Shown here: piece by piece, positions 5,108-63,397 of the stretch | How positions within the stretch are numbered: the first letter of the stretch is position 1 | Layout: the number at the start of each line of letters is the position of its first letter | Source: Candidatus Nanopelagicales bacterium | GTDB taxonomy: Bacteria; Actinomycetota; Actinomycetes; S36-B12; CAIYMF01 | Assembly (NCBI GenBank): GCA_049688395.1 | Contig: JBAVKQ010000093.1 | Span: forward strand, 2,775-66,774 | Length of the DNA: 64,000 bases | Direction of reading: 5' to 3' | Notes under the pieces: model-generated | Seen by the model: only the letters and a program-made list of their open reading frames with translations | Databases searched by the model: none | What the model was told of the DNA's origin: nothing | Program-made: the position numbers and the translations under genes

Positions 5108-5110
5108 GCC

Positions 5111-15537: not shown

Positions 15538-15546
15538 GAGAAGTCA

Positions 15547-23931: not shown

Positions 23932-24477
23932 ATGCCGCGTCTGATCCACCTGCACGATCCTGTGGAGCGGTTCGTCGTGGGCACCGTCGGGATGCCCGGT
24001 GAGCGCACATTTTTCGTGCAGGCCCGCTCCGGTGGTCGCATCAACACGGCTGCCATGGAGAAGGAGCAGGTCTCGATGCTCGCCGATCGGCTCGAGGAGC
24101 TGGTCGCCAACGTCGCCACGCGCTTCGAGTTCGAGGTGCCCGAACCGGGCCCCACGGATGTGGACCCGTTGGAGGTCCCCCTGGTCGAGGAGTTCCGGGT
24201 GGCGGCCATCGCCTTCGGCTGGGATCCGGCCAATGACCAGATGCTCTTCGAACTGCACGGTCCCAGCGGGGACGAGGACATCGACCCCACCGAGATCGAC
24301 GACGCGGACGAGGGCCCGCCGATCCTGCGGGTGCGCAGCACCCTGAACCAGGCCGTGGACTTCGTCGTCCGGGCCCGCAAGGTCGTGGCTGCCGGGCGCC
24401 CGCCGTGCCCGTTCTGCCAGCAGCCGCTGGACCCGGCCGGGCACATCTGCCCGCGGGCCAACGGCTACCGGCGGTGA
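23932..24477 (+). CDS. DUF3090-family protein
   Basis: FVVGTVGMPGERTFFVQA... and a C-terminal CPFCQQPLDPAGHICPRANG zinc-ribbon-like end, as recalled for DUF3090. Confidence 0.7.
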   Translation: MPRLIHLHDPVERFVVGTVGMPGERTFFVQARSGGRINTAAMEKEQVSMLADRLEELVANVATRFEFEVPEPGPTDVDPLEVPLVEEFRVAAIAFGWDPANDQMLFELHGPSGDEDIDPTEIDDADEGPPILRVRSTLNQAVDFVVRARKVVAAGRPPCPFCQQPLDPAGHICPRANGYRR

Positions 24478-41162: not shown

Positions 41163-41207
41163 GTCCTCGACCTTAGGCCTGATCTCGCGACCCGGCCCGC
41201 CGCCGGA

Positions 41208-42041: not shown

Positions 42042-42047
42042 CGTCGG

Positions 42048-43067: not shown

Positions 43068-43594
43068 CGAGACCCGGCCGGCAGCAGCTTCAGTGCGGCG
43101 TCCTCGGTGCGGATCCGGACCGCCATCAGGGCAGCGTTCAGCGTGGTGAACACCAGGGCGGTGACCCATGCCGAGCCGACCAGCGGCAGCGCGAACCCCT
43201 CGATCACGACCGCCACGTAGTTGGGGTGGGACAGTCGGGCGTAGGGACCGCGAGTCACCCTCGGCAGGCCGGGGACGATCACCACCCGGGTGTTCCACCG
43301 TGGCCCCAGCGAGGCGATGCACCACCAGCGCAGCGCCTGGGCGCCCAGCACCAGTATCAGCATCGGCACCGCCAGGGCGGCGATCATCTGCCGACCTGCC
43401 AGATGGACCTCGACCAAGGCCCCCACCAGCAGGCCCAGGTGCAGCACGACCATCGCCGGATAGTGCCCCCGGCCGTGCTCCTGCCCGCCGCGCTCGGCGC
43501 TCCAGCGCAGGTTGCGCTGGGAGACGATCAGCTCGGCGACCCGCTCCAGGCCCACGAGGACGATAAGCACCGTGAATACGGTGGTGCCGCTCAC
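43064..43594 (-). CDS. Isoprenylcysteine carboxyl methyltransferase (ICMT)-family membrane methyltransferase (SrsB-like)
   Basis: Membrane protein with LVTRGPYARLSHPNYVAVVIEG. GTG 43594 lies 4 nt after the PKS stop. Confidence 0.78.
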   Translation of the reverse strand: MSGTTVFTVLIVLVGLERVAELIVSQRNLRWSAERGGQEHGRGHYPAMVVLHLGLLVGALVEVHLAGRQMIAALAVPMLILVLGAQALRWWCIASLGPRWNTRVVIVPGLPRVTRGPYARLSHPNYVAVVIEGFALPLVGSAWVTALVFTTLNAALMAVRIRTEDAALKLLPAGSR

Positions 43595-43598
43595 CGGG

Positions 43599-44675
43599 TC
43601 ACCAGCGCAGCAGGACGAGTTCGGCACAGAACCCCGGGCCCAGGGCGATCAGCAGCCCGGGTGTCCCCGAATCGGGAGTCGGGGCGCCGTCACGGCCCTC
43701 GAGGGTGTCGGCGAGCACATGCAGGACCGAGGCCGAGGACAGGTTCCCGATGCGTGCCAACGACCGCCAAGTGACCCCCAGCTCGTCGTCGGTCAGACCC
43801 AGGGAGGACTCCATGGCCTCCAGCACCTTCGGGCCGCCCGGGTGACAGACCCAGTTCGCGATGTCGGGAACCTTCAGATCCTGATCGGAGAGGAAACCGA
43901 CGACGTCGTCCTCGAGGTACTGGGTCACGACCGTCGGCACGTCGGCCGACAGCACGAGCCGGAACCCGCTGCCGCCGACGTCCCAGCCCATGGTGTGCTG
44001 GGTGTCGGGATACATCCGGCTGCGCGAGGCGAGCACGCGAGGCCCGGTGATGCCCATCCGCCGCGCGCGGTCGGCTCCCACCATCACGACCGCGGCCGCA
44101 CCGTCACCGAACAATCCGCTGGCCACCACGTTGGGCATCGACACGTCCGCGTGCTGCAACGTCAGCGAGCACAACTCGATCGAGAGCAGCACGGCCACCC
44201 CGTCGGGATCGCCCAGCAGGTAGTCGCGGACCCGGGCGATCCCCGCCACCCCGGCCACGCACCCGAGGCCGAAGATCGGCAGGCGTTTGACGTCGGGACG
44301 CAGCCCCAACGCCGGCACGAGCCGGGCCTCCAACGACGGTGCCGCGATCCCCGTCACCGAGGTGGACACCACCAGGTCGACGTCCTCGGGCCTCAGGCCG
44401 GCCTTGGCCAGGGCGCCCCGGATGGCCTGCTCGCCCAGGTCCAGGCCCACCCGGATGAACACATCGTTGGCCGCCCCGAAGTCGTCGAGGTCGGGGTAAT
44501 CCGCCAGGTCGAGGGCCAGGTTCCGGCTGCGCACACCTGTGGCGGCATGGATCTTCTCGACCAGCGCGACGTGGCCACCATCGGGGGACACCATCGTTCC
44601 GAACGCCTTGGTGATCTCCTGCTGCGGGTAGGCGAACGGGGCCAACACTCCATGAACTCCGGCAATAACCACCAT
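43599..44675 (-). CDS. Type III polyketide synthase (chalcone/stilbene synthase family, SrsA-like)
   Basis: Catalytic Cys in FGLGCVAGV, His in VCHPGGPKV, Asn in IGNLSSASV. Confidence 0.9.
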   Translation of the reverse strand: MVVIAGVHGVLAPFAYPQQEITKAFGTMVSPDGGHVALVEKIHAATGVRSRNLALDLADYPDLDDFGAANDVFIRVGLDLGEQAIRGALAKAGLRPEDVDLVVSTSVTGIAAPSLEARLVPALGLRPDVKRLPIFGLGCVAGVAGIARVRDYLLGDPDGVAVLLSIELCSLTLQHADVSMPNVVASGLFGDGAAAVVMVGADRARRMGITGPRVLASRSRMYPDTQHTMGWDVGGSGFRLVLSADVPTVVTQYLEDDVVGFLSDQDLKVPDIANWVCHPGGPKVLEAMESSLGLTDDELGVTWRSLARIGNLSSASVLHVLADTLEGRDGAPTPDSGTPGLLIALGPGFCAELVLLRW

Positions 44676-44765: not shown

Positions 44766-45941
44766 TCACGGGGGAGCGTCGAACGCGCGCGCGACGACCA
44801 CGTCGGTCGACGCGTGGGCGATGATCGACAGGGTGATGGTCAACGCGGTCAGGTGGAACAGCGCGTCGGCCGCGTCGATGCCCGATTCCAGGATCAACAG
44901 GCCGTAGACGACCGAGGCGAAGCCCTTCGGCCCGAACCACATGGCGGCGGCCTTCTCCCGCATGTCCAACGGCGAGCGGGCCAGGGAGATCAGCAGTGCC
45001 AGGGGCCGTGCCACCACGAGGGCCAGCACCGCGAACACCCACCCGGGCCACGGGATCTCGCGCAGGAACGGGATCGAGATGAGCAGGCCGAAGACCAGCA
45101 GGGCGCCGAGCTTGAGCAGTTCGGCCAGCACTTCGCCCAGCTCGCGGAAGGCCTGCACCTCGCGCTGGCCCAGGGTGGCCACGGTCATGCCGGCGGTGAA
45201 TGCGGCCAGGAACAGGTTGGCGGTGGTGAGCAGGCACAGCCCCACGACCAGCAGGGCGATGCCCACGGCGGTGATGGCGATGTACTCACCGCTCGAGGCG
45301 AACACCCGGCTGCGTTCCAGACGCAGCACCGCCCAGGGCACGACCACGCCGATCCCGACCCCGAGCAGCAGTTCGAAGAGCACCGTGCCGATCTGGGGCT
45401 CCTCCTTGGAGGCGATCTCCAGCAGGATGATGACCACGGGCAGCGCAAGCCCGTCGTTGAGGCCCGACTCGACGTTGAGCATCTGGCGCAGGCGGTGGGG
45501 GACCCGCAGGTTGCCGACCAGCGCCGCGGCGAAGACCGGATCGGTCGGGGCCAGGGCGGCACCGAGCAGCAGACACTCCAACATACTCAGATCCGTCAGC
45601 CAGTAGGCGAGGCCTGCGGTGATGGCCATGGTCAGGGGCATCCCGAACAGCAGCGCGCGACTGGGCAGTCGCCAGGCCGCCCGCAGGTCGGGCCAGCCCA
45701 GACGCATCCCGTCGGTGAACAGGACCGCGAACAGCGCGGCCTCGGCCAACCAGAGGACGATCGGGTCGTCGGGCTGCAGGTCGACGATGCCCAATGAACC
45801 GTCGCCGGCCACGATCCCCACGACCAGGAACAGCACCGCCGTGGACAGGACCGTCCTGTGCGCCCGCGCGGAGATGAGCACCGCGACCAGCAGGGCCACG
45901 GCGTAGAGCAGCAGCAGGACGGTGTTCTGGTCCACGGCCAT
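44766..45941 (-). CDS. Cation:proton antiporter (CPA1 family), second copy
   Basis: Polytopic membrane protein with LAPTDPVF, LNVESGLNDGLA and WFGPKGFAS. Confidence 0.85.
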   Translation of the reverse strand: MAVDQNTVLLLLYAVALLVAVLISARAHRTVLSTAVLFLVVGIVAGDGSLGIVDLQPDDPIVLWLAEAALFAVLFTDGMRLGWPDLRAAWRLPSRALLFGMPLTMAITAGLAYWLTDLSMLECLLLGAALAPTDPVFAAALVGNLRVPHRLRQMLNVESGLNDGLALPVVIILLEIASKEEPQIGTVLFELLLGVGIGVVVPWAVLRLERSRVFASSGEYIAITAVGIALLVVGLCLLTTANLFLAAFTAGMTVATLGQREVQAFRELGEVLAELLKLGALLVFGLLISIPFLREIPWPGWVFAVLALVVARPLALLISLARSPLDMREKAAAMWFGPKGFASVVYGLLILESGIDAADALFHLTALTITLSIIAHASTDVVVARAFDAPP

Positions 45942-48669: not shown

Positions 48670-49035
48670 TCAGCGTCCGGGCTCGGGGTCGGCGCCCCGC
48701 GCACGTTCGCGACGGCTCCTCGGCTCGTCGATGACTGTGACCGGTGGCCGCGCGGTGCCGGAGCGGTAGGCGGCCCGACCCAACGCCATGCCCGAAAGTG
48801 GGACGGTCGCGATGTGGGCCACCAGCACCAGCGCGACGAGGACGGCGTTGCGCGGGCTGGGCGCCATCGCCAAGGTTCCCAACAGAACCAGGATCACACC
48901 GAGGGAGGCCGCCTTCGACACGGCGGTGGCCCGGGTCAGCGGGTCCGGCAGCCGAAGCAGGCCGACCCCAGCCAACGTGACCAGACTGGCGCCGACGAGG
49001 ATCGCGGCAGCCCCGAGCCCCGCCCAGCCGCTCAC
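48670..49035 (-). CDS. mrpG: Mrp/Mnh monovalent cation:H+ antiporter subunit G
   Basis: VGLLRLPD...R.....K..SLG pattern, in the last operon position. Confidence 0.85.
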   Translation of the reverse strand: MSGWAGLGAAAILVGASLVTLAGVGLLRLPDPLTRATAVSKAASLGVILVLLGTLAMAPSPRNAVLVALVLVAHIATVPLSGMALGRAAYRSGTARPPVTVIDEPRSRRERARGADPEPGR

Positions 49036-49295
49036 TGGTCCTCCTCGGATCGATCGACGAGGCGCGCGAGGCCGATCGTGGCCAGGAACCCGATCAGCAC
49101 CGTGACAAGGGCGACGTCCAGCAGGGTCGGGGCCTCCAGGACGACCGACAGGATCGCGATCGCCGCCACCGCGGCGACGAACACCAGCTCCGCGGCGACC
49201 GCGCGGTCGGCCCCGCTGGGTCCCCGAGCGGCGCGCGTGACCGCGGCCAGGACACCGAGGGCCACCAGTGCCAGGGACAGGATCGGGATCAGCAT
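49032..49295 (-). CDS. mrpF: Mrp antiporter subunit F
   Basis: 87 aa with three TM helices. GPS..DR motif (ARGPSGADRAVA). Overlapping start/stop codons on both sides. Confidence 0.8.
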   Translation of the reverse strand: MLIPILSLALVALGVLAAVTRAARGPSGADRAVAAELVFVAAVAAIAILSVVLEAPTLLDVALVTVLIGFLATIGLARLVDRSEEDQ

Positions 49296-49660
49296 CAGCG
49301 ATCCGCCGATCCGGCGCTGCGCAGGACGCCGAGCACCCGGTCCTCCACGGCCACGAGCCCGGCGCGCAGTTCCTCGGGTTCCCGGGCGTACATGCTGTGC
49401 ACCCACAGTTCGGCCAGGTCGGGATCGACCGTGACGGTCAGCGTCCCCGGTGTCAGGGTGATCAGGGCCGACAGGGTGGCCACCTCCATCGGGGTGCGGC
49501 AGCGCAGGGGCAGGATCACGATCCCCGGGACCAGCCTCGGGGACGGCACGATGATGTCGCGGCCCACCTGGATCGAGGAGACCACGATCGCCCGCACCGT
49601 CCATGCCAGCAGCCCGACCAGGGCGCCGGCTCTGCGCACGCTCTCGACCACCCAGGTCAT
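49295..49660 (-). CDS. mrpE: Mrp antiporter subunit E (short form)
   Basis: Assigned from its position between D and F. LITLTPGTL motif. Confidence 0.75.
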   Translation of the reverse strand: MTWVVESVRRAGALVGLLAWTVRAIVVSSIQVGRDIIVPSPRLVPGIVILPLRCRTPMEVATLSALITLTPGTLTVTVDPDLAELWVHSMYAREPEELRAGLVAVEDRVLGVLRSAGSADR

Positions 49661-51249
49661 CGTCCCAACACCGCCTCGACGTAGGCGCTGGGATCGCCCA
49701 GGGTGGCGCCGGCCTGCTCGGTCAGGGCCAGCAGCGGCTCCGGGTACAGGCCCACCGCCAGGCTCAGGCAGGCCAGGATCAGCCCGGGGGCGACCAGGCC
49801 GGCCGACCAGCGCCGCTCGTGCGGCTCGGGGTCCGGCTCGGTGTCCGAATCCAGGGCCACCGGGGCCACGGTAGCCACGGCGGCACCTTCGGTCGCCGGC
49901 TCCGATTCGAAGCCCGGGGCGGGTTCATCGGGGGAACCCAGCGGCGGGCCCGCCTGCACCGCCTGCCTCGGGGCCTCGCCCCAGAACACCCCGGTCCCGA
50001 GCTTGAGCATCGACATCAGGGTGCCCACGCTGACCAGCAGGGCCGCGGCGAACACCAGCGGGCTGTCCGCCGCCAGAGCCGCGGAGAGGACCCCGAACTT
50101 GGCCCAGAACCCGGAGAACGGCGGGATGCCGGTCAGCGACAGGGCGCCGAACAGGAACGCCAGCGCCACCCAGCGGTGCTCGGCGGCGACCGCACCGAGG
50201 CTGCCGATCCGCCCCGTCCCGCGGCGGACCTCGACGGCTCCCACGCTCAGGAACAGCGAGGTCTTCACCACCGTGTGGTGCACGAGGTAGAACACGACGG
50301 CCGCCAGGCCGACCGGCCCGGCCAGCGCCAGCCCGACCAGGATGTAGCCGACCTGGCTGACCATGTGGAACGCCAGCACCCCGCGCACCGTGCCCTCGCC
50401 CAGGGCGCCGAGCACACCGACCACCATGCTCACCACGGTCAGGACGATGATGGTGTTCTCGACCACCGGCCCCGGGTCGTAGACCACGGTGACGACCCGG
50501 ATCAGGGCGTACACCCCGATCTTGGTCAGCAGGCCTGAGAACAGGGCGGTGATCGCGGGGGTGGCCTGGGGGTAGGTGGCCGGCAGCCAGGTGTGGGTGG
50601 GCACCAGCCCGCCCTTCATGCTCAGCGCCACCAGCACGACCGCCACGGCGACCCCGATCGCCGGGGTGGCCCCCGCCCCCGCGAGCGCGGCGAGGTTGAC
50701 CGTGCCCGCGGTGCCGTAGACGGCCCCCAGGCCGATCAGGAACAGGGTCGAGGCGGTCAGGTTCACCGTCAGGTACAGCCGCGCGGCCCGGATCGCCCCC
50801 GGGGTGCCGCGCCAGGCCAGCAGCACGTAGGAGGGCAGCAGGGCCACCTCGATCATGACGAACAGGTTGAACAGGTCCGCGGTCAGGTAGGCGCCGTAGA
50901 CCCCCGAGGTCATCATCAGCACCAGCGGGGCGAACAGCCGGTCCTGGCCGTGGCCGGTACGCAGCGCGAAGCTCACGCTGGCCAGCACGAGCATGCCGGA
51001 GACCACCAGCATCAGGGCGCTGAGCAGGTCGGCGACGAACGGGATCGCGATCCCGGCCGGCCACCCGGCCACCTGGGCGGCGATCACCGTGCCGTCGCTG
51101 GTGGCGGCCACCAGGGCACCTCCCCCGAGGATGACCAGCGCGGGGGTCAGCAGCACCAGGGCGCGGCCCACCGCCGGGGGTCGCACCACCAACGAGAGGA
51201 CCGCGGCCAGCAGCGGCCCGGCGACGAAGAGTGGGAGCCACGCGCTCAC
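49657..51249 (-). CDS. mrpD: Mrp antiporter subunit D (NuoN/ND2-like)
   Basis: Proton-conducting membrane transporter family (THTWLPATYP..., GIPPFSGFWAKF), with an acidic Pro-rich insertion near the C-terminus. Confidence 0.9.
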   Translation of the reverse strand: MSAWLPLFVAGPLLAAVLSLVVRPPAVGRALVLLTPALVILGGGALVAATSDGTVIAAQVAGWPAGIAIPFVADLLSALMLVVSGMLVLASVSFALRTGHGQDRLFAPLVLMMTSGVYGAYLTADLFNLFVMIEVALLPSYVLLAWRGTPGAIRAARLYLTVNLTASTLFLIGLGAVYGTAGTVNLAALAGAGATPAIGVAVAVVLVALSMKGGLVPTHTWLPATYPQATPAITALFSGLLTKIGVYALIRVVTVVYDPGPVVENTIIVLTVVSMVVGVLGALGEGTVRGVLAFHMVSQVGYILVGLALAGPVGLAAVVFYLVHHTVVKTSLFLSVGAVEVRRGTGRIGSLGAVAAEHRWVALAFLFGALSLTGIPPFSGFWAKFGVLSAALAADSPLVFAAALLVSVGTLMSMLKLGTGVFWGEAPRQAVQAGPPLGSPDEPAPGFESEPATEGAAVATVAPVALDSDTEPDPEPHERRWSAGLVAPGLILACLSLAVGLYPEPLLALTEQAGATLGDPSAYVEAVLGR

Positions 51250-51662
51250 GGGCCGACCTCCGGCTCGGGCCTCGGCTGCTCGTCCCTCGGTAGTTCTGGC
51301 CTCGGCAGGACAGTGGCCCCGGCACCGCCACCGGCACTGGCACCGGCATCGGCTTCGGCACCGGCAGGTTCGGGCTCCGCGCCCCGGGACACCAGGGACA
51401 GCAGGTAGATCGTCACGCCGAACGTGATCACGATGGCTGTGAGCACGAACGCCTGCGGCAGGGGATCCGCGGCGGTGCCGGGGTCGAGTCCGGGGCCGGT
51501 GATGGGTGCCGAACGCCGGTCGGTGACCCCGGCGGAGATGATCACGAGGTTCGCGGCGTGTCCGAGCAGGATGAAGCCCAGGATGAGCCGGATCGCGCCG
51601 CCACGCAGGACCAGCCAGGCCCCCACGGCGGCCAGCAGCCCCGCAGCGATCGCCAGGGTCAT
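51246..51662 (-). CDS. mrpC: Mrp antiporter subunit C (NuoK-like) with low-complexity C-terminal tail
   Basis: NuoK-like core (ILGFILLGHAANL..., PLPQAFVLTAIVI) plus an Ala/Glu/Pro-rich tail. Confidence 0.85.
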   Translation of the reverse strand: MTLAIAAGLLAAVGAWLVLRGGAIRLILGFILLGHAANLVIISAGVTDRRSAPITGPGLDPGTAADPLPQAFVLTAIVITFGVTIYLLSLVSRGAEPEPAGAEADAGASAGGGAGATVLPRPELPRDEQPRPEPEVGP

Positions 51663-54439
51663 GGCGTCACCTCGCTGCGCGCAGTGCTGCCGGCCTCGCT
51701 GCGTGCCCCGCCGAGGGCGTCGCTGCGGGCTTCGCGGTGCAGCCCGAGGTTGTCCAGGGCCGACTGGACCAGTCCGAGGACCACGAGGACCACGCCGAGG
51801 TCGAAGACCAGCGCGGAGGTCAGGTACCCCTCGGCCCCCGGCAGCGCGATTTTCATGGGCTGGCCGAACGCACCCGCCACGACCAGGCCCATCAGCCCGG
51901 TCCCCACGGCCAGCAGCAGTCCCGCCCCGACGATCAGGGGCACACCGGGCAGTCGGACTCGGATCCCGCAGGCGCGGGCCACTGCCAGGGCGGCTCCGGC
52001 CACCAGCCCGGCGATGAACCCGCCACCCGGCTCGTCGTGACCGCGCCAGAACAGCACCACCCCGGTGAGCATCAGCAGGGGCAGGACCACGATCGCCCCG
52101 ACCCGCAGGACCGCCTCCTCGCCGGGGCCGAGGGCGCCACTGCGGACCGCCCGGGTCGCCCCGGCGCCCCGCACCGCAACGACCAGACCGAGGGCTGCCG
52201 CGGCCAGGACGACGATCTCACCGAGGGTGTCCAGCCCGCGGAAGTCGACCAGGATCGTGTTGACGACGTTGCTGCCGCCCGTGGCCCGCTCGGCCTCGGC
52301 CAGGAAGTACTCGGAGACCGCCGATCGTTCCCGGCGCCCGGTGAACACCACCACGAGCAGGGCCGTGAGCACCCCGACGGCCCCGGCACCCAACGCGTGG
52401 GCCGGGCCGACGCGCCGAGCGGCCCGATCAGGCAGGCCCGCCAGGACCGGGGCGGCCACGACCACGGTCAGGATCTCCACGAGCAGCAGGGTGAGTGCCA
52501 CGTCGGGGGCGCCCAGCAGCATCAACCAGGCCGACAGGGTCACTCCGATCACCCCGGCCAGGACCAGGGCGGCCAGCCCGTCGCGCACCCGGGCCATCGC
52601 CAGCACGGCCGGGACGAGCACGGCCAGCACCAGCCAGTCACCGGGCTGAGCAATGCCGGGCACCACCGGGCCGAGGTCCGAGATCACCAGCCAGCCGACC
52701 CCCGTCAGGCCGAGCAGGAGCACGAGGACGCCGGCCAGATGCGTGCCCGCGGTGTCCACGCGGCTGGTGCGCGCGACCCGGGCACCGAACCGCAGTGCCG
52801 CGTCCCACCCGCGGTCGAAGACACCGGGGCCGCGCAGGTCCGGGGCCTCCCAGTGCGCCATCTCGGCCAGTCGGTTGCGCCGCAGGTGCCCCACGATACC
52901 CAGACCGATCGCGGTGGCCGATAGCCCGAGGGCCAGCGAGAAGCCGTGCCACAGGGCCAGGTCCGCCTCGGTCCCGGCGAACCCGGTGTCGACCACCGCC
53001 CGGGTCACCAGGTCGTTGAGCAGGAACGGCGCCAGACCGAGGACCAGTCCGAGGATGGCCGGGACAGCTGCCGGTGCCAGGAAGAGCGCGGACGGCTCGT
53101 ACAGGTTGCTCTGGCGCAGGGGGCCGGCGAACGTCCCGGCGATGATCCGCGCGCTGTAGGCGAAGGTCAGCGCCGCGCCGATCACCGCCACGCCCACGGC
53201 CAGGTTCCCCGACCATGCCGCGCCCTGCGCCCAGCGCGCCTCCCCGGTGCCAAGGAAGGCGTAGAACGCCTCCTCCTTGGCCACGAAGCCGACCATCGGC
53301 GGCAGCCCGGCCATCGACATCGCAGCCAGGGCGGTCAGCCCGGCGGTCACCGGCATGACCCGCCACAGGCCGGACAGCTGGCGGATGTCGCGGCTGCCGG
53401 CCTCCTTGTCGATGATGCCCACCAGCATGAACAGCGTCGCCTTGAACAGGGCGTGTGCCGCGGCGAGCACCGTGGCCGCGGCCAGGGAGGCCGCCGTCCC
53501 CACCCCGACGAGGGCGACCATGAGACCCAGCTGGCTGACGGTGGAGTAGGCCAGCAGCGCCTTGAGGTCGTTCTGCTTGAGAGCCTGGTAGGCGCCGAAC
53601 ACGGCCGTGGACAGGCCCACGCCCATCAGGGTCAGGTGCCAGGCGGGGGCGTCGGCGAACAGTGGGGAGAACAGCAGCAGAAGGTAGATGCCGGCCTTGA
53701 CCAGCGATGCGGCGTGCAGGTAGGCGCTGACCGGAGTGATCGCCACCATTGCCCCGGGCAGCCAGAAGTGGAACGGCAGCTGGGCGGACTTCGTGAACGC
53801 GGCCAGCACCACGAGCCCCCCGACCACGCCGAGCTCGGAGCCGGTCAGCGCCTCCGGCGCCACGGCCAGGACGGTGGCGATGTCGCTGCTCCCAGTACGC
53901 ACGACCAGCAGCACCACCGCCCCCAGCAGGGCCAGTCCACCGCCCGCCGTCACGAACAGCGCTCGGGTCGCCGGCCGGGAGCCGGTAGTGCCCTGGCCCG
54001 CGATGAGCAGGAAGCTGCTCAGGGTCGTGAGCTCCCAGAAGACCACGAGCACGACGAGGTCACCGGCCAGGACCAGGCCCAGCATCGCCGTCGCGAAGAC
54101 CGCCAGGATCCCGTACAGGCGCCCGTGGTCCTGGCCGGGCGAGAGGTACTGCGGGGCGTAGCTCAGCACCAGGGCCCCCACCCCGAGCACGAGCATGGCG
54201 AACAGCAGGGCGAGTCCGTTGAGGCGCAGCGTGAGGTCCACTGCGAACGACGGAACCCAGCTCCACGACTGGGTGACCGTTTGGCCGGCAAGCACCTCGG
54301 GGGCATCGACGAGCAGCAGCCCCGCCGCCGCCAGGAATGCGCCGGCCAGCGGGTACCCGGTCGCCCGGCCCAACAATCTGCTCAGCAGCGGCACCAGGGC
54401 AGCAGCACCCGCCATGAGCACGAGCGCCGCGATCAACAC
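51659..54439 (-). CDS. mrpA: Mrp antiporter fused subunit A/B (NuoL-like)
   Basis: 926 aa, GTG start. NuoL-like N-terminal two thirds (FTKSAQLPFHFWLPGAM) and an MnhB-like C-terminal region (GGSNVVNTILVDFRGLDTLGE). Confidence 0.92.
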   Translation of the reverse strand: MLIAALVLMAGAAALVPLLSRLLGRATGYPLAGAFLAAAGLLLVDAPEVLAGQTVTQSWSWVPSFAVDLTLRLNGLALLFAMLVLGVGALVLSYAPQYLSPGQDHGRLYGILAVFATAMLGLVLAGDLVVLVVFWELTTLSSFLLIAGQGTTGSRPATRALFVTAGGGLALLGAVVLLVVRTGSSDIATVLAVAPEALTGSELGVVGGLVVLAAFTKSAQLPFHFWLPGAMVAITPVSAYLHAASLVKAGIYLLLLFSPLFADAPAWHLTLMGVGLSTAVFGAYQALKQNDLKALLAYSTVSQLGLMVALVGVGTAASLAAATVLAAAHALFKATLFMLVGIIDKEAGSRDIRQLSGLWRVMPVTAGLTALAAMSMAGLPPMVGFVAKEEAFYAFLGTGEARWAQGAAWSGNLAVGVAVIGAALTFAYSARIIAGTFAGPLRQSNLYEPSALFLAPAAVPAILGLVLGLAPFLLNDLVTRAVVDTGFAGTEADLALWHGFSLALGLSATAIGLGIVGHLRRNRLAEMAHWEAPDLRGPGVFDRGWDAALRFGARVARTSRVDTAGTHLAGVLVLLLGLTGVGWLVISDLGPVVPGIAQPGDWLVLAVLVPAVLAMARVRDGLAALVLAGVIGVTLSAWLMLLGAPDVALTLLLVEILTVVVAAPVLAGLPDRAARRVGPAHALGAGAVGVLTALLVVVFTGRRERSAVSEYFLAEAERATGGSNVVNTILVDFRGLDTLGEIVVLAAAALGLVVAVRGAGATRAVRSGALGPGEEAVLRVGAIVVLPLLMLTGVVLFWRGHDEPGGGFIAGLVAGAALAVARACGIRVRLPGVPLIVGAGLLLAVGTGLMGLVVAGAFGQPMKIALPGAEGYLTSALVFDLGVVLVVLGLVQSALDNLGLHREARSDALGGARSEAGSTARSEVTP

Positions 54440-54521
54440 GCGCCCACTCTAACGAGTCGAGGCCGAGTCGATGATCGGGCGAAGCCGACAGCAATCGACG
54501 ATCCGCCGCCCACGGCGTGGA

Positions 54522-55307
54522 TCATCCCGGGCGCACCGCGACCATCCGGTGCAGCGACACCGGCACCACCCGCCCGGGCCCGGCGAGGCGGGCCAGGCGC
54601 GCCGCGGCGAGCTCGCGGCGAGCGTGTGACACATGGGGCAGGTAGAGCGCCTCGACAGCCAGGCGCGCGTCGGCGGAGGTGGCCAGCGGGTGGGCGAACC
54701 GCGCCGCACCCGTGCTGAGGACACGCATCCCAGCGCCGGTGATCACCTGGCCGAGTCCCCGCCCGGTGACGCGTTGGGGCAGCTCGGGCAGGTGCCGCAG
54801 GGCCAGCAGGAGCGGGGCGACGACGCGCAGGTCGCCTGCGAGCAGGGGGCCGCTGACGGGGCGGATCGCGGCGAACGTGCCCCCGGGTCGAAGGACCCGG
54901 GCGACCTCGGCCATCGCCGCGCCGATCGGTCGCAGCAGCATGATGGCCATCGAGCAGACCACGACGTCCAGCGACCCGGACGGCACGGGTAGGGCCAGGG
55001 CGTCAGCAGTGAGCACGTGGCCCCGACCCCGTTGCGCGGCCACCCCGAGCTCAGCGGGGGAGAGGTCGATGCCGAGGTAGTCCGAATCGGCGAACAGCGG
55101 CTGCATCGGGGCGCTGCCGCACGCGATGTCCAGCACCCGGGCCGGACGGATCGGGACCGCGTCGCGCAGCCACCGGTAGGGGTCCCCGAACTCGGGGTGC
55201 CGTGACCCGGACAGGAGTTCCTCGGTGATCCCCGGATGTTCGGCGTGGAACCGAGCCAGGTAGCTGGTCCACGGGTCTGCGGCTCGCTGGTCTGCGGGCC
55301 TGATCAC
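54522..55307 (-). CDS. Class I SAM-dependent methyltransferase
   Basis: Motif I VLDIACGSA. Post-I region LGIDLS. VARVLRPGG also present. Confidence 0.8.
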   Translation of the reverse strand: MIRPADQRAADPWTSYLARFHAEHPGITEELLSGSRHPEFGDPYRWLRDAVPIRPARVLDIACGSAPMQPLFADSDYLGIDLSPAELGVAAQRGRGHVLTADALALPVPSGSLDVVVCSMAIMLLRPIGAAMAEVARVLRPGGTFAAIRPVSGPLLAGDLRVVAPLLLALRHLPELPQRVTGRGLGQVITGAGMRVLSTGAARFAHPLATSADARLAVEALYLPHVSHARRELAAARLARLAGPGRVVPVSLHRMVAVRPG

Positions 55308-55355: not shown

Positions 55356-56171
55356 CTATCCGGCCAGGGTGCCGGCGAAGACCTGCCAGGCCAGCAGGGA
55401 CTTGGCCACCAGGCTCAGGGTGATGTAGGCCCGTTCCCCGACCAGGTAGTCCGCCCAGCGCCCCACCTGCTTGTACTGCAGGTACTGGGTGACGGCGAAC
55501 ACGTTGAAGAACAGGAACAGCGACACGATGATGCCGTACACGAACGCCGGCGGCTCGGCCGAGGACGTCGACCCCGGGGCCACCACGAAGAACGCGATGA
55601 TCAACCACGGCACGATGCCGGTCATGGACCCGAAGATGAACGGCAGGAACCCGCCGCCGGGCTGCTCGTAGACCTCCTGCAGCCACCCGAAGAGGATCAT
55701 CGCCGCGTTCACCGCGAAGATCGCCGCGAGGGCCGCGACGTCGGTCAGGCCGGTGATCTGGGCGATCAGCACGATCATCATCGACGAGGTCAACGCGTAC
55801 TCGACCCACCGGGCCCGATTGCGCTGCTCGGCCAGGTCCGCGGCATATCCCCGGGACCACACCGTGGCCACGATCAGCAGCGCCAGGCCCGACAGGGCCA
55901 GGAAGCTGGCGACAGCCAGCCCGATCGGGGTGTTCAGCAGCGTCACCGGATCACCGGGCGCGGTCCCTGGCGGGCCCTCGAGGTAGGCCGCGGTGACCGG
56001 CAGGGTGAAGCCGTTGGACAGCGCGACCACGGCCACCGCCTGCGCGAGCAGGATCAGTCCCACGATGATGTTGTACCGGCGCAGTCCGGCGAGGCGACCC
56101 GGCTCGATCGGCACGGTCGCGGTGGGGGAGTCCGGCATTGGGCTGCCGGCAGGTGAGGGGTTCATGTCCAT
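55356..56171 (-). CDS. Heliorhodopsin
   Basis: Seven TM helices with family-diagnostic blocks: RWVEYALTSSMMIVLIAQI, ILFGWLQE, GIVPW, APGS, FVYGIIVSLFLFFNVFAVTQYLQYK, GERAYITLSLVAKSLLAWQVF. The Lys codon is at 55401..55403 and the Glu codon at 55800..55802. The start is ATG 56171 or 56165. Confidence 0.88.
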   Translation of the reverse strand: MDMNPSPAGSPMPDSPTATVPIEPGRLAGLRRYNIIVGLILLAQAVAVVALSNGFTLPVTAAYLEGPPGTAPGDPVTLLNTPIGLAVASFLALSGLALLIVATVWSRGYAADLAEQRNRARWVEYALTSSMMIVLIAQITGLTDVAALAAIFAVNAAMILFGWLQEVYEQPGGGFLPFIFGSMTGIVPWLIIAFFVVAPGSTSSAEPPAFVYGIIVSLFLFFNVFAVTQYLQYKQVGRWADYLVGERAYITLSLVAKSLLAWQVFAGTLAG

Positions 56172-56252
56172 TACGCTAGCCCAACGCTGGCCCCGGCACC
56201 CCCGCACCGCGGACCCGGCGGTGCGGGGGTGCGCAGATCTGCGCCGTGCCGG

Positions 56253-56468
56253 TCAGCCCTGCTGGGGCAGCGGGCGAGTGGAGATCCCGAGCACGGAGTA
56301 CAGGGGGCAGTAGCCCGAGACGGCGGTCCAGCCCGCCATCCCGGCCACCCCGAACAGGCCGACGCCCAGCGGGTTGAACACCCCGCCGAGCGCAAGACCC
56401 GTGCCCAGCGCGGTCACAGCGATCCCGCCGCGGATGACGCGGTCGAGGTTTCCTTCGTTCTTGGTCAT
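56253..56468 (-). CDS. DUF2892 (YgaP-like) small membrane protein
   Basis: ATG 56468 follows aaggag. NLDRVIRGGIA... has two TM helices and ends ...SGYCPLYSVLGIST, typical of DUF2892. Confidence 0.7.
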   Translation of the reverse strand: MTKNEGNLDRVIRGGIAVTALGTGLALGGVFNPLGVGLFGVAGMAGWTAVSGYCPLYSVLGISTRPLPQQG

Positions 56469-56519: not shown

Positions 56520-56543
56520 TGGAATACCCCCCTGGGTATTCCA
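56520..56543. promoter_or_regulatory. Perfect 10-bp inverted repeat with 4-nt spacer (operator-like, or terminator hairpin)
   Basis: tggaataccc-ccct-gggtattcca. It lies 52 nt upstream of the DUF2892 start and 22 nt downstream of the epimerase stop. Confidence 0.5.
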
Positions 56544-57630: not shown

Positions 57631-60108
57631 TCAGAGTCGTGGGTCGACCGGCTCGGACTCCAGGGCGAGCACCGCGAAGACCGACTGGTGCACCGTCCAG
57701 AGCGGCTCGTGGTCGACGAACGCGCTGAGGGCTTCGAGACCCAGGCCGTGCTCACTCAGGGCGAGGTGGCGCTTCCTGCCCAGATGCCGGTCGCGCAGCA
57801 CGTCCAGCGAGTCGGTGTAGTCAGGTCCGTAGATGATTCTCAGGTACTCCCGGCCACGCACCTCGATGCCGGGTTGGATGCGTCCCTGGGTCAGGTGCGC
57901 GGGCTTGACGACCATCCATTCGCCGCCGGCGGCAGTCAGGTCGAGCCACCACTGCGTCGCCGCGTCGCGTTGCGCGCGCGAGGCGAGATCGACGAAGCGG
58001 TGGCGCGTGGGGGTGATCAGGTCGCCGGTCACCGCGGCCAGCGCGGCGAGGTGCCACTCGTGGGGCTCGGTGAGCGCCAGCGCGCGGCCCTCGGCCGCCA
58101 GGATCTGGAACGGCGCCAGAGTCACCCCCTCGAGCCCGTCGGTCGGCCCGACGTACGCCGCGTAGGCGGCACGGAACGCCTGGGCGTTGGCGAGCCTGCC
58201 CTGCGTCCTGGCGGCCAGGTGCCCCACGTCCAGGCCGCGGGCCGCGGCCTGCTCGAGGACCGCCAGCGCTTCGGGAAGGGCATGACGGGCGGCGGCCCCG
58301 ACCGAGGCGTACTGCGACGTGATCACATCGACCGCCTTGGCCGACCACGGCAGCAGCTCGCAGTCCAGAGCCAGCCAGTCGGTGTCCAGCGACTCGAACA
58401 GCGCAGCCGTCGTGACGCGGAGCTGATCGACCAGCGCCGCCATGTCAGCGAAGAACGGGCGACCGGTGCGGGTGTAGACCACGCCGGTCGTACCGTCGCC
58501 GACCCCGAAGCGACGCTCGGCAGCGGCCTGGTCCCTGGCGAGGACGGCGATGGCTCGGGAGCCCATGTGCTTCTCCTCGCACACGACGCGCGTGGCACCC
58601 CAGCCGGCGTACTCGTCGAAGGCCTGCTCCGGGTGTTCCAGGAATCCATGGACCTGGGAGGTCGCGACCGGCGACATCGTCGGGGGCAGGTAGATCAGCC
58701 AGCGCGGGTCGACCGCGAACCGACTCATCACCTCCAGGGCCGCCGCAGCGTTCTCCTCGGGGATCTTCACCCTGCCTGCGTGGGCCGTGTCGAGCCAGCG
58801 GGTGCCGGCGACGTCGTCGATCTCGAGTACTGATGGCTCGCGGTCCCCGCCGGCGGCGGCCAGGGGGCGGATCGGCTCCTACCCCTCGCGCTGCGCCGGG
58901 ACCGAGACGAGATCGCGTTCGGGGTAGCGCAGCGCTGTCAACGAGCCACCGAAGACGACCCCGGTGTCCAGGCAGATCGTGTTGTTGACCCACTGGGCCT
59001 CGGGCACGGGGGTGTGCCCGTAGACGACGGTCGCCCGGCCCCGATACTCCTGGGCCCAGGGGTAGCGGACCGGCAGGCCGTACTCATCGGTCTCCCCGGA
59101 GGTGTCGCCGTAGAGCGCGAAGGATCGCACCCGACCAGAGGATCGACCGTGGTAGGACTCCTCGAGCCCGGCGTGCGCCACGACGAGCCTTCCCTCGTCG
59201 AGGACGTAGTGGCTGATCAGCCCGTTCATGAAATCGAGCGCGCGCACGCGGAACTCGCCCGGTTCGCCGCTCAGCTGGGTGAGCGACTCGGCCAGCCCGT
59301 GCGAGACGGTCACCTTCGATCCCCGCAGTGCACGCACGAGCTTCGCCTCGTGGTTGCCCGAGACGCAGAGCGCGGTGCCCGACTCGACCATGCCCATCAC
59401 CAGCCGGAGCACCCCGGGCGTGTCCGGGCCACGGTCCACGAGGTCGCTGACGAACAAGGCCTGGCGTCGGTCGGGGTGCGTGGCGCCCACTGCGAGGTCC
59501 CCGTCGTAGCGGATCGCCCACCCGAGCGCGGTGAGCAGGGTGCGCAGCTCGGCCGCGCAGCCGTGGATGTCGCCGACGATGTCGAAGGGACCAAGGAGGT
59601 CGGTGCGGTCGTTCCACGGGCGCTCGCGAACGATCTCGGCCGACTCGATCTGCTCGATTCCGCGCAGGACGCGCACACGACGGAAGCCCTCCTTGCCGAG
59701 TCTCCCGAGCGAGCGTCTCAGATCGCGCGCCTGGCGCGACACGACATGACTGCCGAAGTCGCGATCGGGTCGCGTCCGGTTGCGCTCGACGGCCACCGAC
59801 TCCGCGACGTCGATCACGATGGCGTCGACGAGCGAATCGTGGCTGCGGGCCAGGTCGATCAGCGCGGATCGGGCCGCTCTCTGGAGGTTGGTGGCATCGA
59901 CCACGGTCAGCAGTCCCCGGCGCAGCCGGGTGCCGTCGATGTAGTGCAGGACGTCGAAGGCATCCGCGGTGGCCGACTGATCGTTCTCGTCGTCGGCCAC
60001 CAGGCCCCGGCAGAAGTCGCTGGACACGACCTCGGTCGAGGCGAAGTGGGCGCGCGCGAAGGTCGACTTGCCGCTGCCGGACACCCCGACCAGAACGATC
60101 AGGCCCAT
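57631..60108 (-). pseudogene. pnkp: Polynucleotide kinase-phosphatase/ligase Pnkp, interrupted by one in-frame TAG (58879..58881)
   Basis: 58879..60108 encodes the kinase (GVSGSGKST) and calcineurin-type phosphatase (GDIHGC, DLVDRGPD, GNHE). The same frame continues after the TAG into the ligase domain (EEKHMGSR, through 57631). The frame is open across 58771..58878. Confidence 0.85.
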
Positions 60109-60142
60109 CGCGGGAACGGTGACTCGAGACGTGCGCAGTGCC

Positions 60143-61551
60143 TCAGATATCGTCGCCGCCGGCCCTGGTGAAGATCGCCATCACGGTGGGCGTACCACGC
60201 CGCTCGTCGAGGTCCCCGATGCCGCGTCGCTGGACCGAGTAGCCATAGGACGCGGCAACACGGTCAGACCATCGACCGAACTGCGCACGGGTCCACTCGA
60301 AGCGGTGGTCCGGGTGCCGCAGGCCCACCAGTCCCTCGTAGAGCGCGTTGTACTCGCGGTTCGGGGTCGTCACGATCACTGATCCCGGTCGCGCGGCGCC
60401 GAACACGATGTGCTCCAGCGCTGCCAACCGCGAGGGATCGACGTGCTCGATCACCTCCATGAGAACGGCAGCCTCGAAGCCGGCGTAGCGCTGGTCCTGA
60501 TAGGTGAGCGCGCCCTGGAACAGGTCGATACGTTCGGACTGCCGCTCACTCATCCGGTCGACGTGCAGCCGCCGGGCCGCATGCTGAAGCGATCGCATGG
60601 AGACATCGCTGCCCGCGACCCTGGTGAACGACGGGTCCTTCACCAGGCGTTCGAGGAACTGACCGGACCCGCAGCCGAGGTCGATGACCGACCGGGCCCC
60701 GAGCTCGCGCAGCACCCCATGGACGGCCTCGTGACGCTGGGTGTTGAGCGGGATCCGCTGCTCCGCGGAGCGCAGGACCTCCTCGTCGTCAGCAGGCTCG
60801 ATGGTGACCTGGACCTCGTCGCCGAGCTCGGCCAGTCGCGCGAGCGCCACCCGAGTCAGACCACCGGCCCGGGCCAGGTAGCGGCGGGTGATCAGGCCTT
60901 GTCGGGATGGCTGGCCAGCCAACCCGCACCGGAGCGCAGCAGCTGGTCGGCCTCGTCGGACCCTGCCAGTAGTGCTTGGACTCGTCCAGGACGGGCAGCA
61001 GCACGTGCAACTGGCTCAGCGCATCCGCGAGCCGGACGACGCCGGTGAAGCGAAGCCGGATGTAGCGCGAGTCGCCCCAGTCGGCGAACGCCTCGTCGAG
61101 CGCGATCGGCTCGGCGTCCACGGTCAGCCCAGCGGCTCGAAGACGCGATGCGCGATGACGGCGCCACCGCGGCACGGCAGCACCGGGATCACGATCTCCA
61201 GGGCGATGGCCGAGTCGGCCAACACCTGCCTTGCGGTGCAGCGGCCACTGCGCGGTCCGGAACACGTCGGCCAGCGCAACGCCCAGCAACGACGACGCGG
61301 AGTACGGGCGGTCGTTGACGTACTGGGCGAGGCTGAAGTCCGGAGCGTTGCGCGCCCGCGATCGCGCCAGCCGGACCGGATCCACGTCCAGCATCAGCGC
61401 GACGGTGCACCGCTGCGCACTGGCCTCGGGATAGACGACCGTGGCCGTGCCGAACGCCTGCGGGAACTCCGGCCCTCCGGTCGGGGTGCTTGTGCAGGAG
61501 GTAGCCCAGGTCGGTCGCCGGCTGGTGGGTGGTCGTCACGATCAGGAGCAC
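60143..61551 (-). pseudogene. hen1: RNA 3'-terminal 2'-O-methyltransferase Hen1; N-terminal half disrupted by about five frameshifts, methyltransferase half intact
   Basis: Hen1-like segments are read in three frames: VLLIVTTTHQPATDLGYLLHKHPDR / EFPQAFGTATVVYPEA...QYVNDRPYSASSLLGVALADVFRTA / SGRCTARQVLADSAIALEIVIPVLPCRGGAVIAHRVFEPLG / TVDAEPIALDE...LPVLDESKHYW / SDEADQLLRSGAGWLASHPDKA / LITRRYL...VIDLGCGSG...EVIEH. Confidence 0.8.
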
Positions 61552-61678: not shown

Positions 61679-63397
61679 ATGTCGCCACGCCCCTATGAGG
61701 TTCTGCCCGGCCACCACGGGGGCAGGATCAAGGTCTCGGTGAGCGGCAGCGTGCTCCTGCGCATCCCGCGCCTGAACCGCGGCACCGCCTTCACCCTCGA
61801 GGAGCGGGAGCGGTTCGGCCTGATCGGGCACCTGCCCTCGGGGGTGACCCCGTTGGAGGCCCAACTGCACCGGTCCTACAACCAGTTCCTGCGCGCGGAG
61901 ACCGACCTGGACAAGTTCGCCTTCCTCTCGGCGCTGCGCGATCGCAACACCGTGCTGTTCTACCGGCTGCTCAGCGAGCACCTCGAGGAGATGATGCCGA
62001 TCGTCTACACCCCCACGATCGGGGCGGCGATCATGGAGTTCAGCCAGTCCTACCAACGCCTGCACGGGGTGTTCCTGACGATCGACACCCCGGAGCAGAT
62101 CGAGCGCTCACTGCAGGGCCAGGGCCGCAACCCCGAGGACGTCGACCTGCTCATCGTCACCGACTCCGAGGGCATCCTCGGCATCGGCGACCAGGGGGTG
62201 GGCGGCATCCAGATCGCCCTGGGCAAGAAGTCCCTGTACACCGCTGCTGCGGGCATCGACCCGAACCGGGCCATCGCGATCGTCCTGGACGTGGGCACCG
62301 ACAATCTGGCCCTGTTGTCCGATCCGCTCTACATGGGCCTGCGGCACAGCCGCATCCGCGGAGCGCGCTACGACGACTTCCTCGAGGCGTTCGTCACCGC
62401 GGTGACCACCGTGTTCCCGCACGCGATGATCCACTGGGAGGACTTCGGCGCCGCCAACGCCCATCGCGTGCTCGACAGGTATCGTGACCGGGTCTGCACC
62501 TTCAACGACGACGTGCAGGGCACCGCGGCCGTGGTCGCTGCTGCGGCCCTGGCCGCCGTCGGCTCCCAGGGCGGGCGCCTGCGCGACCAGCGCATCGTCA
62601 TCCACGGCGCAGGGACCGCCGGCGTCGGAGTCGCGGACCTGATGCGCGACATGATGATCAACGAGGGCGCCACAGCCCAGCAGGCCACTGCCGCCTTCTG
62701 GGGGCTGGGCAGTCGTGGGCTGCTCACCACCGCGCTGGGGGACCGGATCCGGCCCTTCCAGCGGCCGTACGCGCGCCAGGCCTCGGAGACCGACGCCTGG
62801 GCGCTGGACGTCGAGGGGCACATCGGCCTGGCCGACGTGATGCGCAACGTCAGGCCCACCATCCTCATCGGGACCTCGGGCCAGCCCGGGGCCTTCACCG
62901 AGCAGATCGTTCGCGAGATGGCCGCGCACGTGGACCATCCGGTGATCATGCCGCTGTCGAACCCCACCGCCCTGGTCGAGGCCACCCCAGCGGACCTGCT
63001 GACCTGGACCGAGGGTCGGGCGCTGATCGCCACCGGGTCGCCGTTCCCCGCGGTCCAACTCGCCGAGCGCGAGTACCGGATCGCCCAGGCCAACAACGCA
63101 TTCGTGTTCCCCGGCCTGGGCCTGGGCGTGGCTGTCTGCCAGGCCACCCGCGTGACCGACGCGATGATCGCCGCGGCCGCGGAGGCGGTCGCCGGGCTCG
63201 CCCACGTGGATCGGCCGGGGGCCTCGCTGCTGCCCCAGGTCTCCGAGTTGCGGATGGTGTCGGCAACGGTCGCGATCGCGGTCGCGCAGGCCGCCGAACG
63301 CGACGGTGTGGCCACGCGTGCGCTGGACAACCCCGTGCAGCAGGTGTTCGACGCCATGTGGACGCCGGTCTACCCGGAGCTCATCCTCGACCGGTGA
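61679..63397 (+). CDS. maeA: NAD(P)-dependent malic enzyme
   Basis: LNRGTAFT, VYTPT, ITDSEGILGIGDQG, and GAGTAGVG, the NAD-binding motif. Confidence 0.92.
   Translation: MSPRPYEVLPGHHGGRIKVSVSGSVLLRIPRLNRGTAFTLEERERFGLIGHLPSGVTPLEAQLHRSYNQFLRAETDLDKFAFLSALRDRNTVLFYRLLSEHLEEMMPIVYTPTIGAAIMEFSQSYQRLHGVFLTIDTPEQIERSLQGQGRNPEDVDLLIVTDSEGILGIGDQGVGGIQIALGKKSLYTAAAGIDPNRAIAIVLDVGTDNLALLSDPLYMGLRHSRIRGARYDDFLEAFVTAVTTVFPHAMIHWEDFGAANAHRVLDRYRDRVCTFNDDVQGTAAVVAAAALAAVGSQGGRLRDQRIVIHGAGTAGVGVADLMRDMMINEGATAQQATAAFWGLGSRGLLTTALGDRIRPFQRPYARQASETDAWALDVEGHIGLADVMRNVRPTILIGTSGQPGAFTEQIVREMAAHVDHPVIMPLSNPTALVEATPADLLTWTEGRALIATGSPFPAVQLAEREYRIAQANNAFVFPGLGLGVAVCQATRVTDAMIAAAAEAVAGLAHVDRPGASLLPQVSELRMVSATVAIAVAQAAERDGVATRALDNPVQQVFDAMWTPVYPELILDR

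Follow-up and report, generated by a model that had tools for sequence, protein, structure and literature searches.

The heliorhodopsin gene and its upstream region

A 64,000-nucleotide stretch of the genome of a Candidatus Nanopelagicales bacterium (contig JBAVKQ010000093.1, positions 2,775 to 66,774 of the forward strand), which is called the window in the following, carries on its minus strand a gene that almost certainly encodes a heliorhodopsin (HeR). An earlier note on this DNA, made from the letters alone, had pointed to this gene and its neighbours. Positions given below are those of the window, and residues are those of a 269-residue product. Numbering of 48C12, the HeR of an actinobacterial fosmid from Lake Kinneret (PDB 6su3, 6su4, 6uh3), is used where indicated. 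The features of the gene and of the region upstream of it are the following.

55356..56165, minus strand: HeR coding sequence in its most likely extent (PF18761, NF038020, 58% identity to 48C12, AlphaFold2 (AF2) model, dN/dS)
55401..55403, minus strand: AAG, retinal Schiff-base Lys (K255; K257 in the numbering of the earlier note), aligned with 48C12 K241
55413-55415, minus strand: Ser of the SxxxK motif (S251; 48C12 S237), from the alignment to 48C12
55800..55802, minus strand: GAG, counterion Glu (Glu122) in RWVEY, aligned with 48C12 E107
55878..55880, minus strand: CTG, Leu at the position of 48C12 His80, from the same alignment
56049..56051, minus strand: CTG, Leu at the position of 48C12 His23, from the same alignment
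56061-56063, minus strand: Val at the position of 48C12 Ala19, from the same alignment
56173..56178, minus strand: TAGCGT, -10-like hexamer (TAnnnT) of a putative leaderless HeR promoter, 7 nt 5' of the ATG at 56165 and conserved upstream of related genes
56196..56232, minus strand: perfect 15-bp inverted repeat with a 7-nt loop, between the stop of a DUF2892 gene (56253) and the HeR -10 box

The open reading frame (ORF) 55356..56171 of the minus strand is open and translates without stops, and every motif block that had been quoted as diagnostic of HeRs was found in its translation (RWVEYALTSSMMIVLIAQI, LFGWLQE, GIVPW, APGS, FVYGIIVSLFLFFNVFAVTQYLQYK and GERAYITLSLVAKSLLAWQVF). When the protein was compared with the Pfam heliorhodopsin model PF18761, the whole model was covered (1-242 of 242) with an E-value of 3.3e-94 and 315 bits, far over the gathering cutoff of 26.7. 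The NCBIfam HeR equivalog NF038020 gave 321 bits against a cutoff of 100, which means that a standard annotation pipeline would already call the protein "heliorhodopsin HeR". The best relatives with a solved structure were three depositions of 48C12 (6su3, 6uh3 and 9ljj; phmmer E~1e-87, 58% identity); the archaeal TaHeR came next. The identification made in the earlier note was therefore fully borne out by these searches. The gene is a new member of a very large and already known family: 6864 homologues at E<=1e-20 were present among the scored candidates, 2975 clusters at 50% identity matched with E<=0.001, and NCBI records already annotate close relatives as HeR. Look-ups of the exact protein sequence, with three alternative starts, returned no record. 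In keeping with the monoderm hosts of HeRs, the host is an actinobacterium of soil or freshwater: the closest genomes are all metagenome-assembled genomes (MAGs) or isolates of Actinomycetota, and the GC content of the window is 70.8%.

The reading frame of about 270 residues given in the earlier note is real, but its start at 56171 adds two codons that are not conserved. Close homologues are mostly 269 residues long and begin with MNP or MTP at the second ATG of the window protein. In an alignment of upstream regions the ATG at 56165 was conserved and the first ATG, at 56171, was not; the latter falls within the spacer between the -10 box and the ATG. For these reasons the coding sequence most likely spans 55356..56165, that is 269 codons and a stop. 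Comparison with five close relatives gave dN/dS values of 0.15-0.22, and the gene is therefore under purifying selection.

Retinal site, fold and the cavity without histidines

The stretch S251-L-V-A-K255 aligned with S237...K241 of 48C12, so that the SxxxK motif is present, and the sequence RWVEY provides the Glu counterion of helix 3 (RWxEY). The codons that had been assigned to the Lys of the seventh and the Glu of the third transmembrane helix were re-read directly, and the phmmer alignment places them on K241 and E107. The AF2 model, which was built from 36 homologues (pLDDT 76, pTM 0.71), shows seven long helices and a beta-hairpin in the AB loop, with strands at 55-59 and 74-79. A Foldseek search with this model gave TM scores of 0.80-0.84 to 6su3/6uh3 and of 0.72-0.79 to TaHeR. 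Seven segments were also found in a hydropathy scan, with 10 Lys/Arg in the loops on the side of the N-terminus (N-terminus, BC and FG) and none on the other side. On the basis of the positive-inside rule, the N-terminus is predicted to be cytoplasmic, which is the inverted topology expected for HeRs and agrees with the orientation anticipated earlier.

With respect to type-1 rhodopsins, such as actinorhodopsin and xanthorhodopsin, the protein shares the seven-helix retinal scaffold (TM scores of 0.5-0.65) with an identity of only 11-17%. It differs from them in having SxxxK in place of DxxxK, Glu instead of Asp as the counterion, the opposite (N-in) topology and no match to PF01036.

The 58% identity to 48C12 extends over the whole seven-helix core and includes the Lys, Glu and Ser (SxxxK) triad. 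We checked 30 positions, namely the residues that Kovalev et al. 2020 (PMC7049168) list as highly conserved and the retinal Lys, and found 27 of them identical to 48C12. The cavity and pocket residues that are shared, in 48C12 numbering, are N16, Q26, P40, F72, S76, Y92, N101, R104, W105, Y108, S112, S113, M115, N138, E149, P172, W173, F206, Q213, Q216, Y226, E230, S242 and W246. The exceptions among the 30 are His23 and His80, both replaced by Leu, and Ser111, replaced by Thr; at position 19, Val stands for Ala. The window HeR thus carries A19V, H23L, H80L and S111T. Its cytoplasmic N-terminus is also longer than that of 48C12, by about 20 residues that are rich in Pro and Ser and modelled at low confidence.

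These residues also bear on the idea that the protein harvests energy or moves ions, either as a proton transporter like V2HeR3 or as a two-antenna harvester that recruits external xanthophylls. Proton transport by V2HeR3 has been reported (PMC9448325), and according to a 2025 preprint a carotenoid site is common among HeRs. However, the window HeR belongs to the group of 48C12. In the extracellular half of helix F, at 48C12 position 202, Glu is common in the mostly viral HeR subfamily 2, being present in many of its members (Kovalev et al. 2020, PMC7049168), and the window HeR has Leu there (codon 55518-55520). Asn138 and Pro172 are conserved, so that the features of V2HeR3-like proteins are absent, and in the interior of the extracellular half the residues of 48C12 are retained. 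Moreover, neither 48C12 nor an actinomycete HeR showed pumping, and the replacement of both cavity histidines by Leu takes polar groups away and adds no conduction path. We consider a transporting or harvesting role unlikely.

The loss of the conserved histidine pair does not affect family membership, since a natural HeR with Leu at both positions still forms a pigment. This protein is HULAa30F3, from a member of the Chloroflexi of Lake Hula. It absorbs maximally at 562 nm, which made it the most red-shifted HeR then known, and it accumulates little M intermediate, as does the H23F/H82F double mutant of TaHeR, and has a long-lived O state (Chazan et al. 2022). A later preprint still cites it as the sole natural HeR in which both histidines are replaced by Leu. 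The histidine-less variant is therefore not new in principle. Among 189 relatives of the window protein, the two positions co-vary cleanly, with 95 sequences Leu/Leu, 90 His/His and one Ala/His. Representatives of the 50%-identity clusters that cover both sites (about 82) comprise 56 His/His and a handful of Leu/Leu sequences.

Sequences with Leu/Leu and Thr111, at least 74% identical to the window protein, group into a coherent clade, whose members come from MAGs labelled Actinomycetes, Candidatus Nanopelagicales or Dermatophilaceae. In a neighbour-joining tree a second Leu/Leu group, from Thermoleophilia and with Met213, lies elsewhere, and each of the two is nested among His/His lineages. 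The Leu/Leu state apparently arose separately in the Actinomycetes clade and in Thermoleophilia. Position 19, which sits one helical turn from position 23, is Val in both groups (100% in one, 9/9 in the other) and in 0% of the His/His sequences, and position 175 leans to Ile/Val in both.

Putative promoter and genomic neighbourhood

The 70 nt upstream of the gene were aligned from 15 genomes whose upstream genes differ, and nearly nothing but GGCTAGCGT, followed by 7 nt and the ATG, was conserved. Leaderless mRNAs of actinobacteria usually have a TAnnnT hexamer 6-8 nt ahead of a start codon that is in frame. We found this arrangement at 42 of 80 related loci, as compared to 0.66 expected in shuffled sequences (maximum 3 in 200 shuffles). 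In the clade to which the window belongs, it was present at 18 of 20 loci. No Shine-Dalgarno sequence precedes the HeR start. Because TAGCGT-N7-ATG is conserved across genomes with different upstream genes, we infer that HeR has its own promoter, which would travel with the gene and give a leaderless mRNA from the ATG at 56165. A scan of the locus with the sigma-70 consensus returned no promoter, and the terminator matches that it returned lay inside coding sequence.

The genes and signals around HeR on the same strand are listed here.

56253..56468, minus strand: DUF2892 (PF11127, YgaP-like_TM; E=1e-12), two-helix membrane protein of 71 aa, ATG after an AAGGAG ribosome-binding site
54522..55307, minus strand: generic class I S-adenosylmethionine (SAM)-dependent methyltransferase (Methyltransf_11/25), below every NCBIfam equivalog cutoff, start 48 nt after the HeR stop
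54446-54451, minus strand: TAGAGT hexamer, 6 nt before the GTG start of mrpA, with no ribosome-binding site
48670..54439, minus strand: complete mrp operon (mrpA/B fusion, C, D, E, F and G; Pfam/NCBIfam), mrpA GTG at 54439

The Pfam and NCBIfam matches agree with the description of these neighbours in the earlier note, which regarded them as an informative gene context. If they were, HeR might be co-transcribed with the methyltransferase and Mrp genes, perhaps also with DUF2892, and act as a light-dependent regulator of cation/proton antiport, as OcHeR does on an ABC transporter. The genes are co-directional, the 48 nt between HeR and the methyltransferase contain no significant hairpin (the fold is no better than shuffled, z=0.24, and gives no evidence of a terminator), and membrane transporters are among the proteins that HeRs are known to bind and modulate. 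Transcription may run on from HeR into the methyltransferase gene, given this short gap without significant structure. The transcription signals, however, separate the genes. HeR has the conserved promoter described above, and the 15-bp inverted repeat sets it apart from DUF2892. This repeat looks like a terminator, lacking a U tract, or possibly an operator; the region folds only moderately better than shuffles (z=-2.2), and its significance rests on the perfect 15-bp repeat. DUF2892 is probably a separate transcription unit. In the same way, the TAGAGT-N6-GTG arrangement of mrpA suggests that the mrp operon has its own leaderless promoter. The HeR gene looks monocistronic, or at most bicistronic with the generic methyltransferase.

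The 80 loci mentioned above contain HeRs with 48-92% identity to that of the window, most with up to 10 kb of flanking sequence per side where the contig allowed. Homologues of the methyltransferase, MrpA, MrpC, the epimerase, Pnkp and Hen1 of the window were found by tblastn within 10 kb of HeR at none of the 80 loci, including at least 16 genomes whose HeR is 82-92% identical. The sole MrpD match (24% identity, in locus L006) is a different protein of the antiporter/Nuo superfamily, and no mrp operon is present there. A search of the same loci with all 60 ORFs of the window gave the same picture, the neighbours not recurring. DUF2892 was detected near HeR at one locus of the 80 by six-frame phmmer (L003), where it lies downstream of HeR and not upstream. 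Clustering of the flanking ORFs showed that the neighbourhood changes from genome to genome even among those with 82-92% identical HeRs. In the window's clade, recurrent neighbours are TerC, a SOUL haem-binding protein, an alpha/beta hydrolase and a beta-lactamase-like protein; in other clades they are an SDR, or MarR and NUDIX proteins. Several of these match published HeR neighbour groups.

The published neighbours of HeRs include glutaredoxin, glutathione peroxidase and histidine kinases (PMC8612252), and Mrp, DUF2892 and methyltransferases are absent from the neighbour families of the three published surveys. A full-text literature search for heliorhodopsin and antiporter returned only incidental co-mentions; neither the surveys nor this search link HeR to Mrp, the methyltransferase or DUF2892. 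A recurrent, co-transcribed partner was thus not found (methyltransferase, Mrp and epimerase 0/80, DUF2892 1/80). Since the neighbours recur neither in the 80 loci nor in the published surveys, the co-directional run is best interpreted as having come about by chance in a single lineage, and the gene context is not informative in the way that had been supposed. Functional coupling of HeR to these neighbours, with light control of the antiporter or the methyltransferase, is, in our judgement, very improbable. No compositional island and no tRNA were found near the HeR locus, and a recent horizontal insertion is thus not supported.

Surveys also underlie the speculation of Chazan et al. that HeRs could be light-dependent enzymes or remodel lipids. 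DegV and DUF2177 are enriched near HeRs, fatty acids are seen in crystal structures and a lipid is bound in the lateral fenestration. On the other hand, neither DegV nor DUF2177 occurs in the window or among the recurrent neighbours of its clade, and, as Chazan et al. point out, the association does not hold for all HeRs. For the window HeR we regard this function as quite improbable.

Some further observations were made on the arrangement of these loci. Of the genes of the window, only that of malic enzyme (window 61679-63397, plus strand) remains near HeR in the most closely related genomes, where the enzyme is 91-92% identical (L006 4496-6214 and L007 8187-9905). In L007 it directly adjoins HeR in divergent orientation, and in the window about 5.5 kb with Hen1, Pnkp, the epimerase and DUF2892 lie between the two, which is consistent with an insertion in the window lineage. 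In L059 (10955-17156; HeR 80% identical) HeR is directly followed by an OpuA-type glycine-betaine ABC transporter operon, with a zinc alcohol dehydrogenase nearby. The orthologues of these genes (69-81% identical) lie at window positions 12505-17561, about 40 kb from HeR, which indicates that the HeR unit is freely repositioned. The Thermoleophilia Leu/Leu loci (L057, L061, L063, L064, L069, L075 and L076, with HeR at about 10001 in most) have a conserved neighbourhood that is absent from the window. In most of them a co-directional MarR-family regulator lies directly upstream of HeR, and in all of them a NUDIX hydrolase lies directly downstream, usually followed by an unknown protein and a GNAT acetyltransferase.

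The association of DUF2892 with HeR in the window and in L003 was considered and treated as a remnant of shared ancestry, the DUF2892 orthologues being 72-77% identical and each having its own upstream palindrome. In the window this intergenic palindrome, GGAATACCC-AGGG-GGGTATTCC (56521-56542, minus strand), lies upstream of DUF2892, and its core, ATACCC-N4-GGGTAT, is also found upstream of the orthologous gene in L003 (11000-11020). A single copy of the core is present in the 64-kb window, and 1.35 Mb of related loci contain two. It is similar to the streptomycete CsoR type-2 operator ATATACCCCTNAGGGGTATAT (PMC3902906), the spacer being shorter by one base, and suggests that DUF2892 may be a separately regulated copper- or persulfide-responsive unit.

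About 58 ORFs of the window were scanned with Pfam or NCBIfam, and none matched a carotenoid or retinal-synthesis family (polyprenyl synthase, CrtB, CrtI, cyclase or Blh) or a type-1 rhodopsin, in agreement with the earlier statement that no retinal-synthesis gene is present in the 64 kb. HeR loci typically lack such genes: blh seldom lies near a HeR, and genomes with HeR often lack blh unless another rhodopsin is present (Chazan et al.). It could nevertheless be argued that this opsin gene is in decay or no longer functional and that retinal is not supplied to its product. The 64 kb contain no genes for retinal synthesis, the nearby Pnkp gene has an in-frame TAG and Hen1 is frameshifted, and some HeR genes of Geodermatophilaceae are frameshifted as well. 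The ORF, however, is intact with all retinal-pocket residues kept, its dN/dS and the conservation of its promoter speak for selection, and the lack of blh near HeR is the rule. Decay is, on this evidence, extremely unlikely.

At 38983-44675 (minus strand), a co-directional cluster encodes a type III polyketide synthase, an isoprenylcysteine-methyltransferase-like protein, a flavoprotein of the geranylgeranyl-reductase family and a UbiA prenyltransferase, with two ArsA/ParA-like ATPases after them. The products of this cluster seem to be prenylated phenolic lipids and not carotenoids. We asked whether the UbiA prenyltransferase and the FAD protein (41-43 kb) could be carotenoid enzymes of the CrtEb or CrtI kind; they belong to generic prenyltransferase and geranylgeranyl-reductase families, and the carotenoid reading was rejected because they stand beside the type III polyketide synthase and the isoprenylcysteine-methyltransferase-like gene and neither CrtB nor CrtI is present.

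Other features of the window were noted. The genes of the epimerase, DUF2892 and HeR are preceded by a bacterial Pnkp/Hen1 RNA-repair cassette (57631-61394, minus strand), neither of whose genes seems to be intact. An in-frame TAG (58879-58881) divides Pnkp into a kinase-phosphatase part (58879-60108) and a ligase domain (57631-58770; PNKP_ligase E=1e-156). Hen1 changes frame between its Hen1_L region (60789-61394) and its methyltransferase domain (60143-60922), which share 134 nt. These disruptions could be due to pseudogenisation or assembly errors, or the genes could be genuinely split. The ORFs 669-2924 (plus strand, 751 aa) and 2921-6358 (minus strand, 1145 aa) have coding-like GC content at third codon positions (GC3) and no Pfam or NCBIfam match at E<=0.001. 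In an 802-aa ORF (22053-24461, minus strand) only residues 509-802 form a CorA Mg2+/Co2+ transporter domain, and the N-terminal part of about 500 residues matches no family. A second, single-subunit Na+/H+ exchanger (PF00999) is encoded at 44766-45941 (minus strand), about 3 kb past the end of the mrp operon.

Proposed function and the histidine-less clade

Taken as a whole, we favour the explanation, with a probability of roughly 0.7, that the window gene encodes a slow-cycling, non-pumping photosensor of a histidine-less subtype, expressed from its own promoter. The protein would be a seven-helix, N-in membrane photoreceptor that binds retinal on Lys255 (48C12 K241) as a protonated Schiff base, which Glu122 (E107) and Ser251 (S237) would stabilise. 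It otherwise has the residue set of 48C12 and TaHeR and, by analogy with these two, would not pump ions. In the course of a slow photocycle, a long-lived state may alter the conformation of the cytoplasmic face and thereby modulate a partner protein, which is probably not encoded next door. The gene would be autonomous, transcribed from its TAGCGT -10 box as a leaderless mRNA, and the apoprotein would rely on all-trans-retinal that is either synthesised by genes in another part of the genome or imported by the cell.

This proposal follows what is known of other members of the family. Regulation of a partner protein by HeRs, through contact between the two proteins, has been shown for glutamine synthetase, for a photolyase and for an ABC transporter, and neither 48C12 nor the actinomycete HeR mentioned above showed pumping. 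The pairs AbHeR-glutamine synthetase, TfHeR-photolyase and OcHeR-OmrDE ABC transporter belong to the same family as the window HeR and have the same presumed light-dependent modulation at the cytoplasmic face. They differ from it in that HeR and partner are encoded in one operon and are found together repeatedly across genomes, whereas the window HeR has no recurrent neighbour.

As regards the cavity, quantum mechanics/molecular mechanics calculations have led to the proposal that, after deprotonation of the Schiff base, the proton moves from Glu107 to His80 and that the signal spreads through His23, a water molecule, Gln26 and Trp246 on one side and through Asn16, Tyr92, Glu230, Arg104 and Glu149 on the other (PMC9726877). 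With both histidines replaced by Leu, the relay proposed in that study cannot operate in the window HeR. The substitutions A19V, H23L, H80L and S111T would thus remove the path Glu107 -> His80 -> His23 -> Gln26 -> Trp246, and the loss of the histidines would increase the hydrophobicity of the Schiff-base cavity. If the protein behaves like HULAa30F3 and TaHeR H23F/H82F, weak accumulation of M and possibly a red-shifted absorption maximum may be expected. HULAa30F3, to which the subtype is likened on the basis of its published description, may serve as a functional model; it comes from a different phylum, and the Actinomycetes clade of the window additionally has Thr111.

Some points weigh against the photosensor proposal. 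The transcription start of HeR is placed by sequence conservation, read-through into the methyltransferase is possible as said above, the recent preprint argues that HeRs are two-antenna light harvesters, and one viral HeR, V2HeR3, transports protons.

The conserved -10 box that travels with the gene accounts for the variety of the neighbourhoods of actinobacterial HeR genes, many of which seem to be self-contained leaderless units. A new conserved partner would have been valuable, as HeR function is only partly understood, and the comparison of loci removes Mrp and the methyltransferase as a false lead.

The combination of Leu/Leu with A19V occurs in two separate lineages, the Actinomycetes clade that includes the window and Thermoleophilia, and a third Leu/Leu case has been published in Chloroflexi. 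Tentatively, and as a possibility that we hold to be less likely than not, the histidine-less state (A19V, H23L and H80L) may be a convergently evolved and functionally distinct class of HeRs. If this were true, and if canonical HeRs signal via the water-filled Schiff-base cavity and the relay, histidine-less HeRs would have to signal differently or to sense something else, for example redder light with no deprotonation of the Schiff base, and an abundant clade of soil actinobacteria would provide a natural test of models of HeR signalling. The existence of a sizeable actinobacterial clade without His23 and His80, the pair that is central to current models of signal propagation, in any case offers a natural control for those models.

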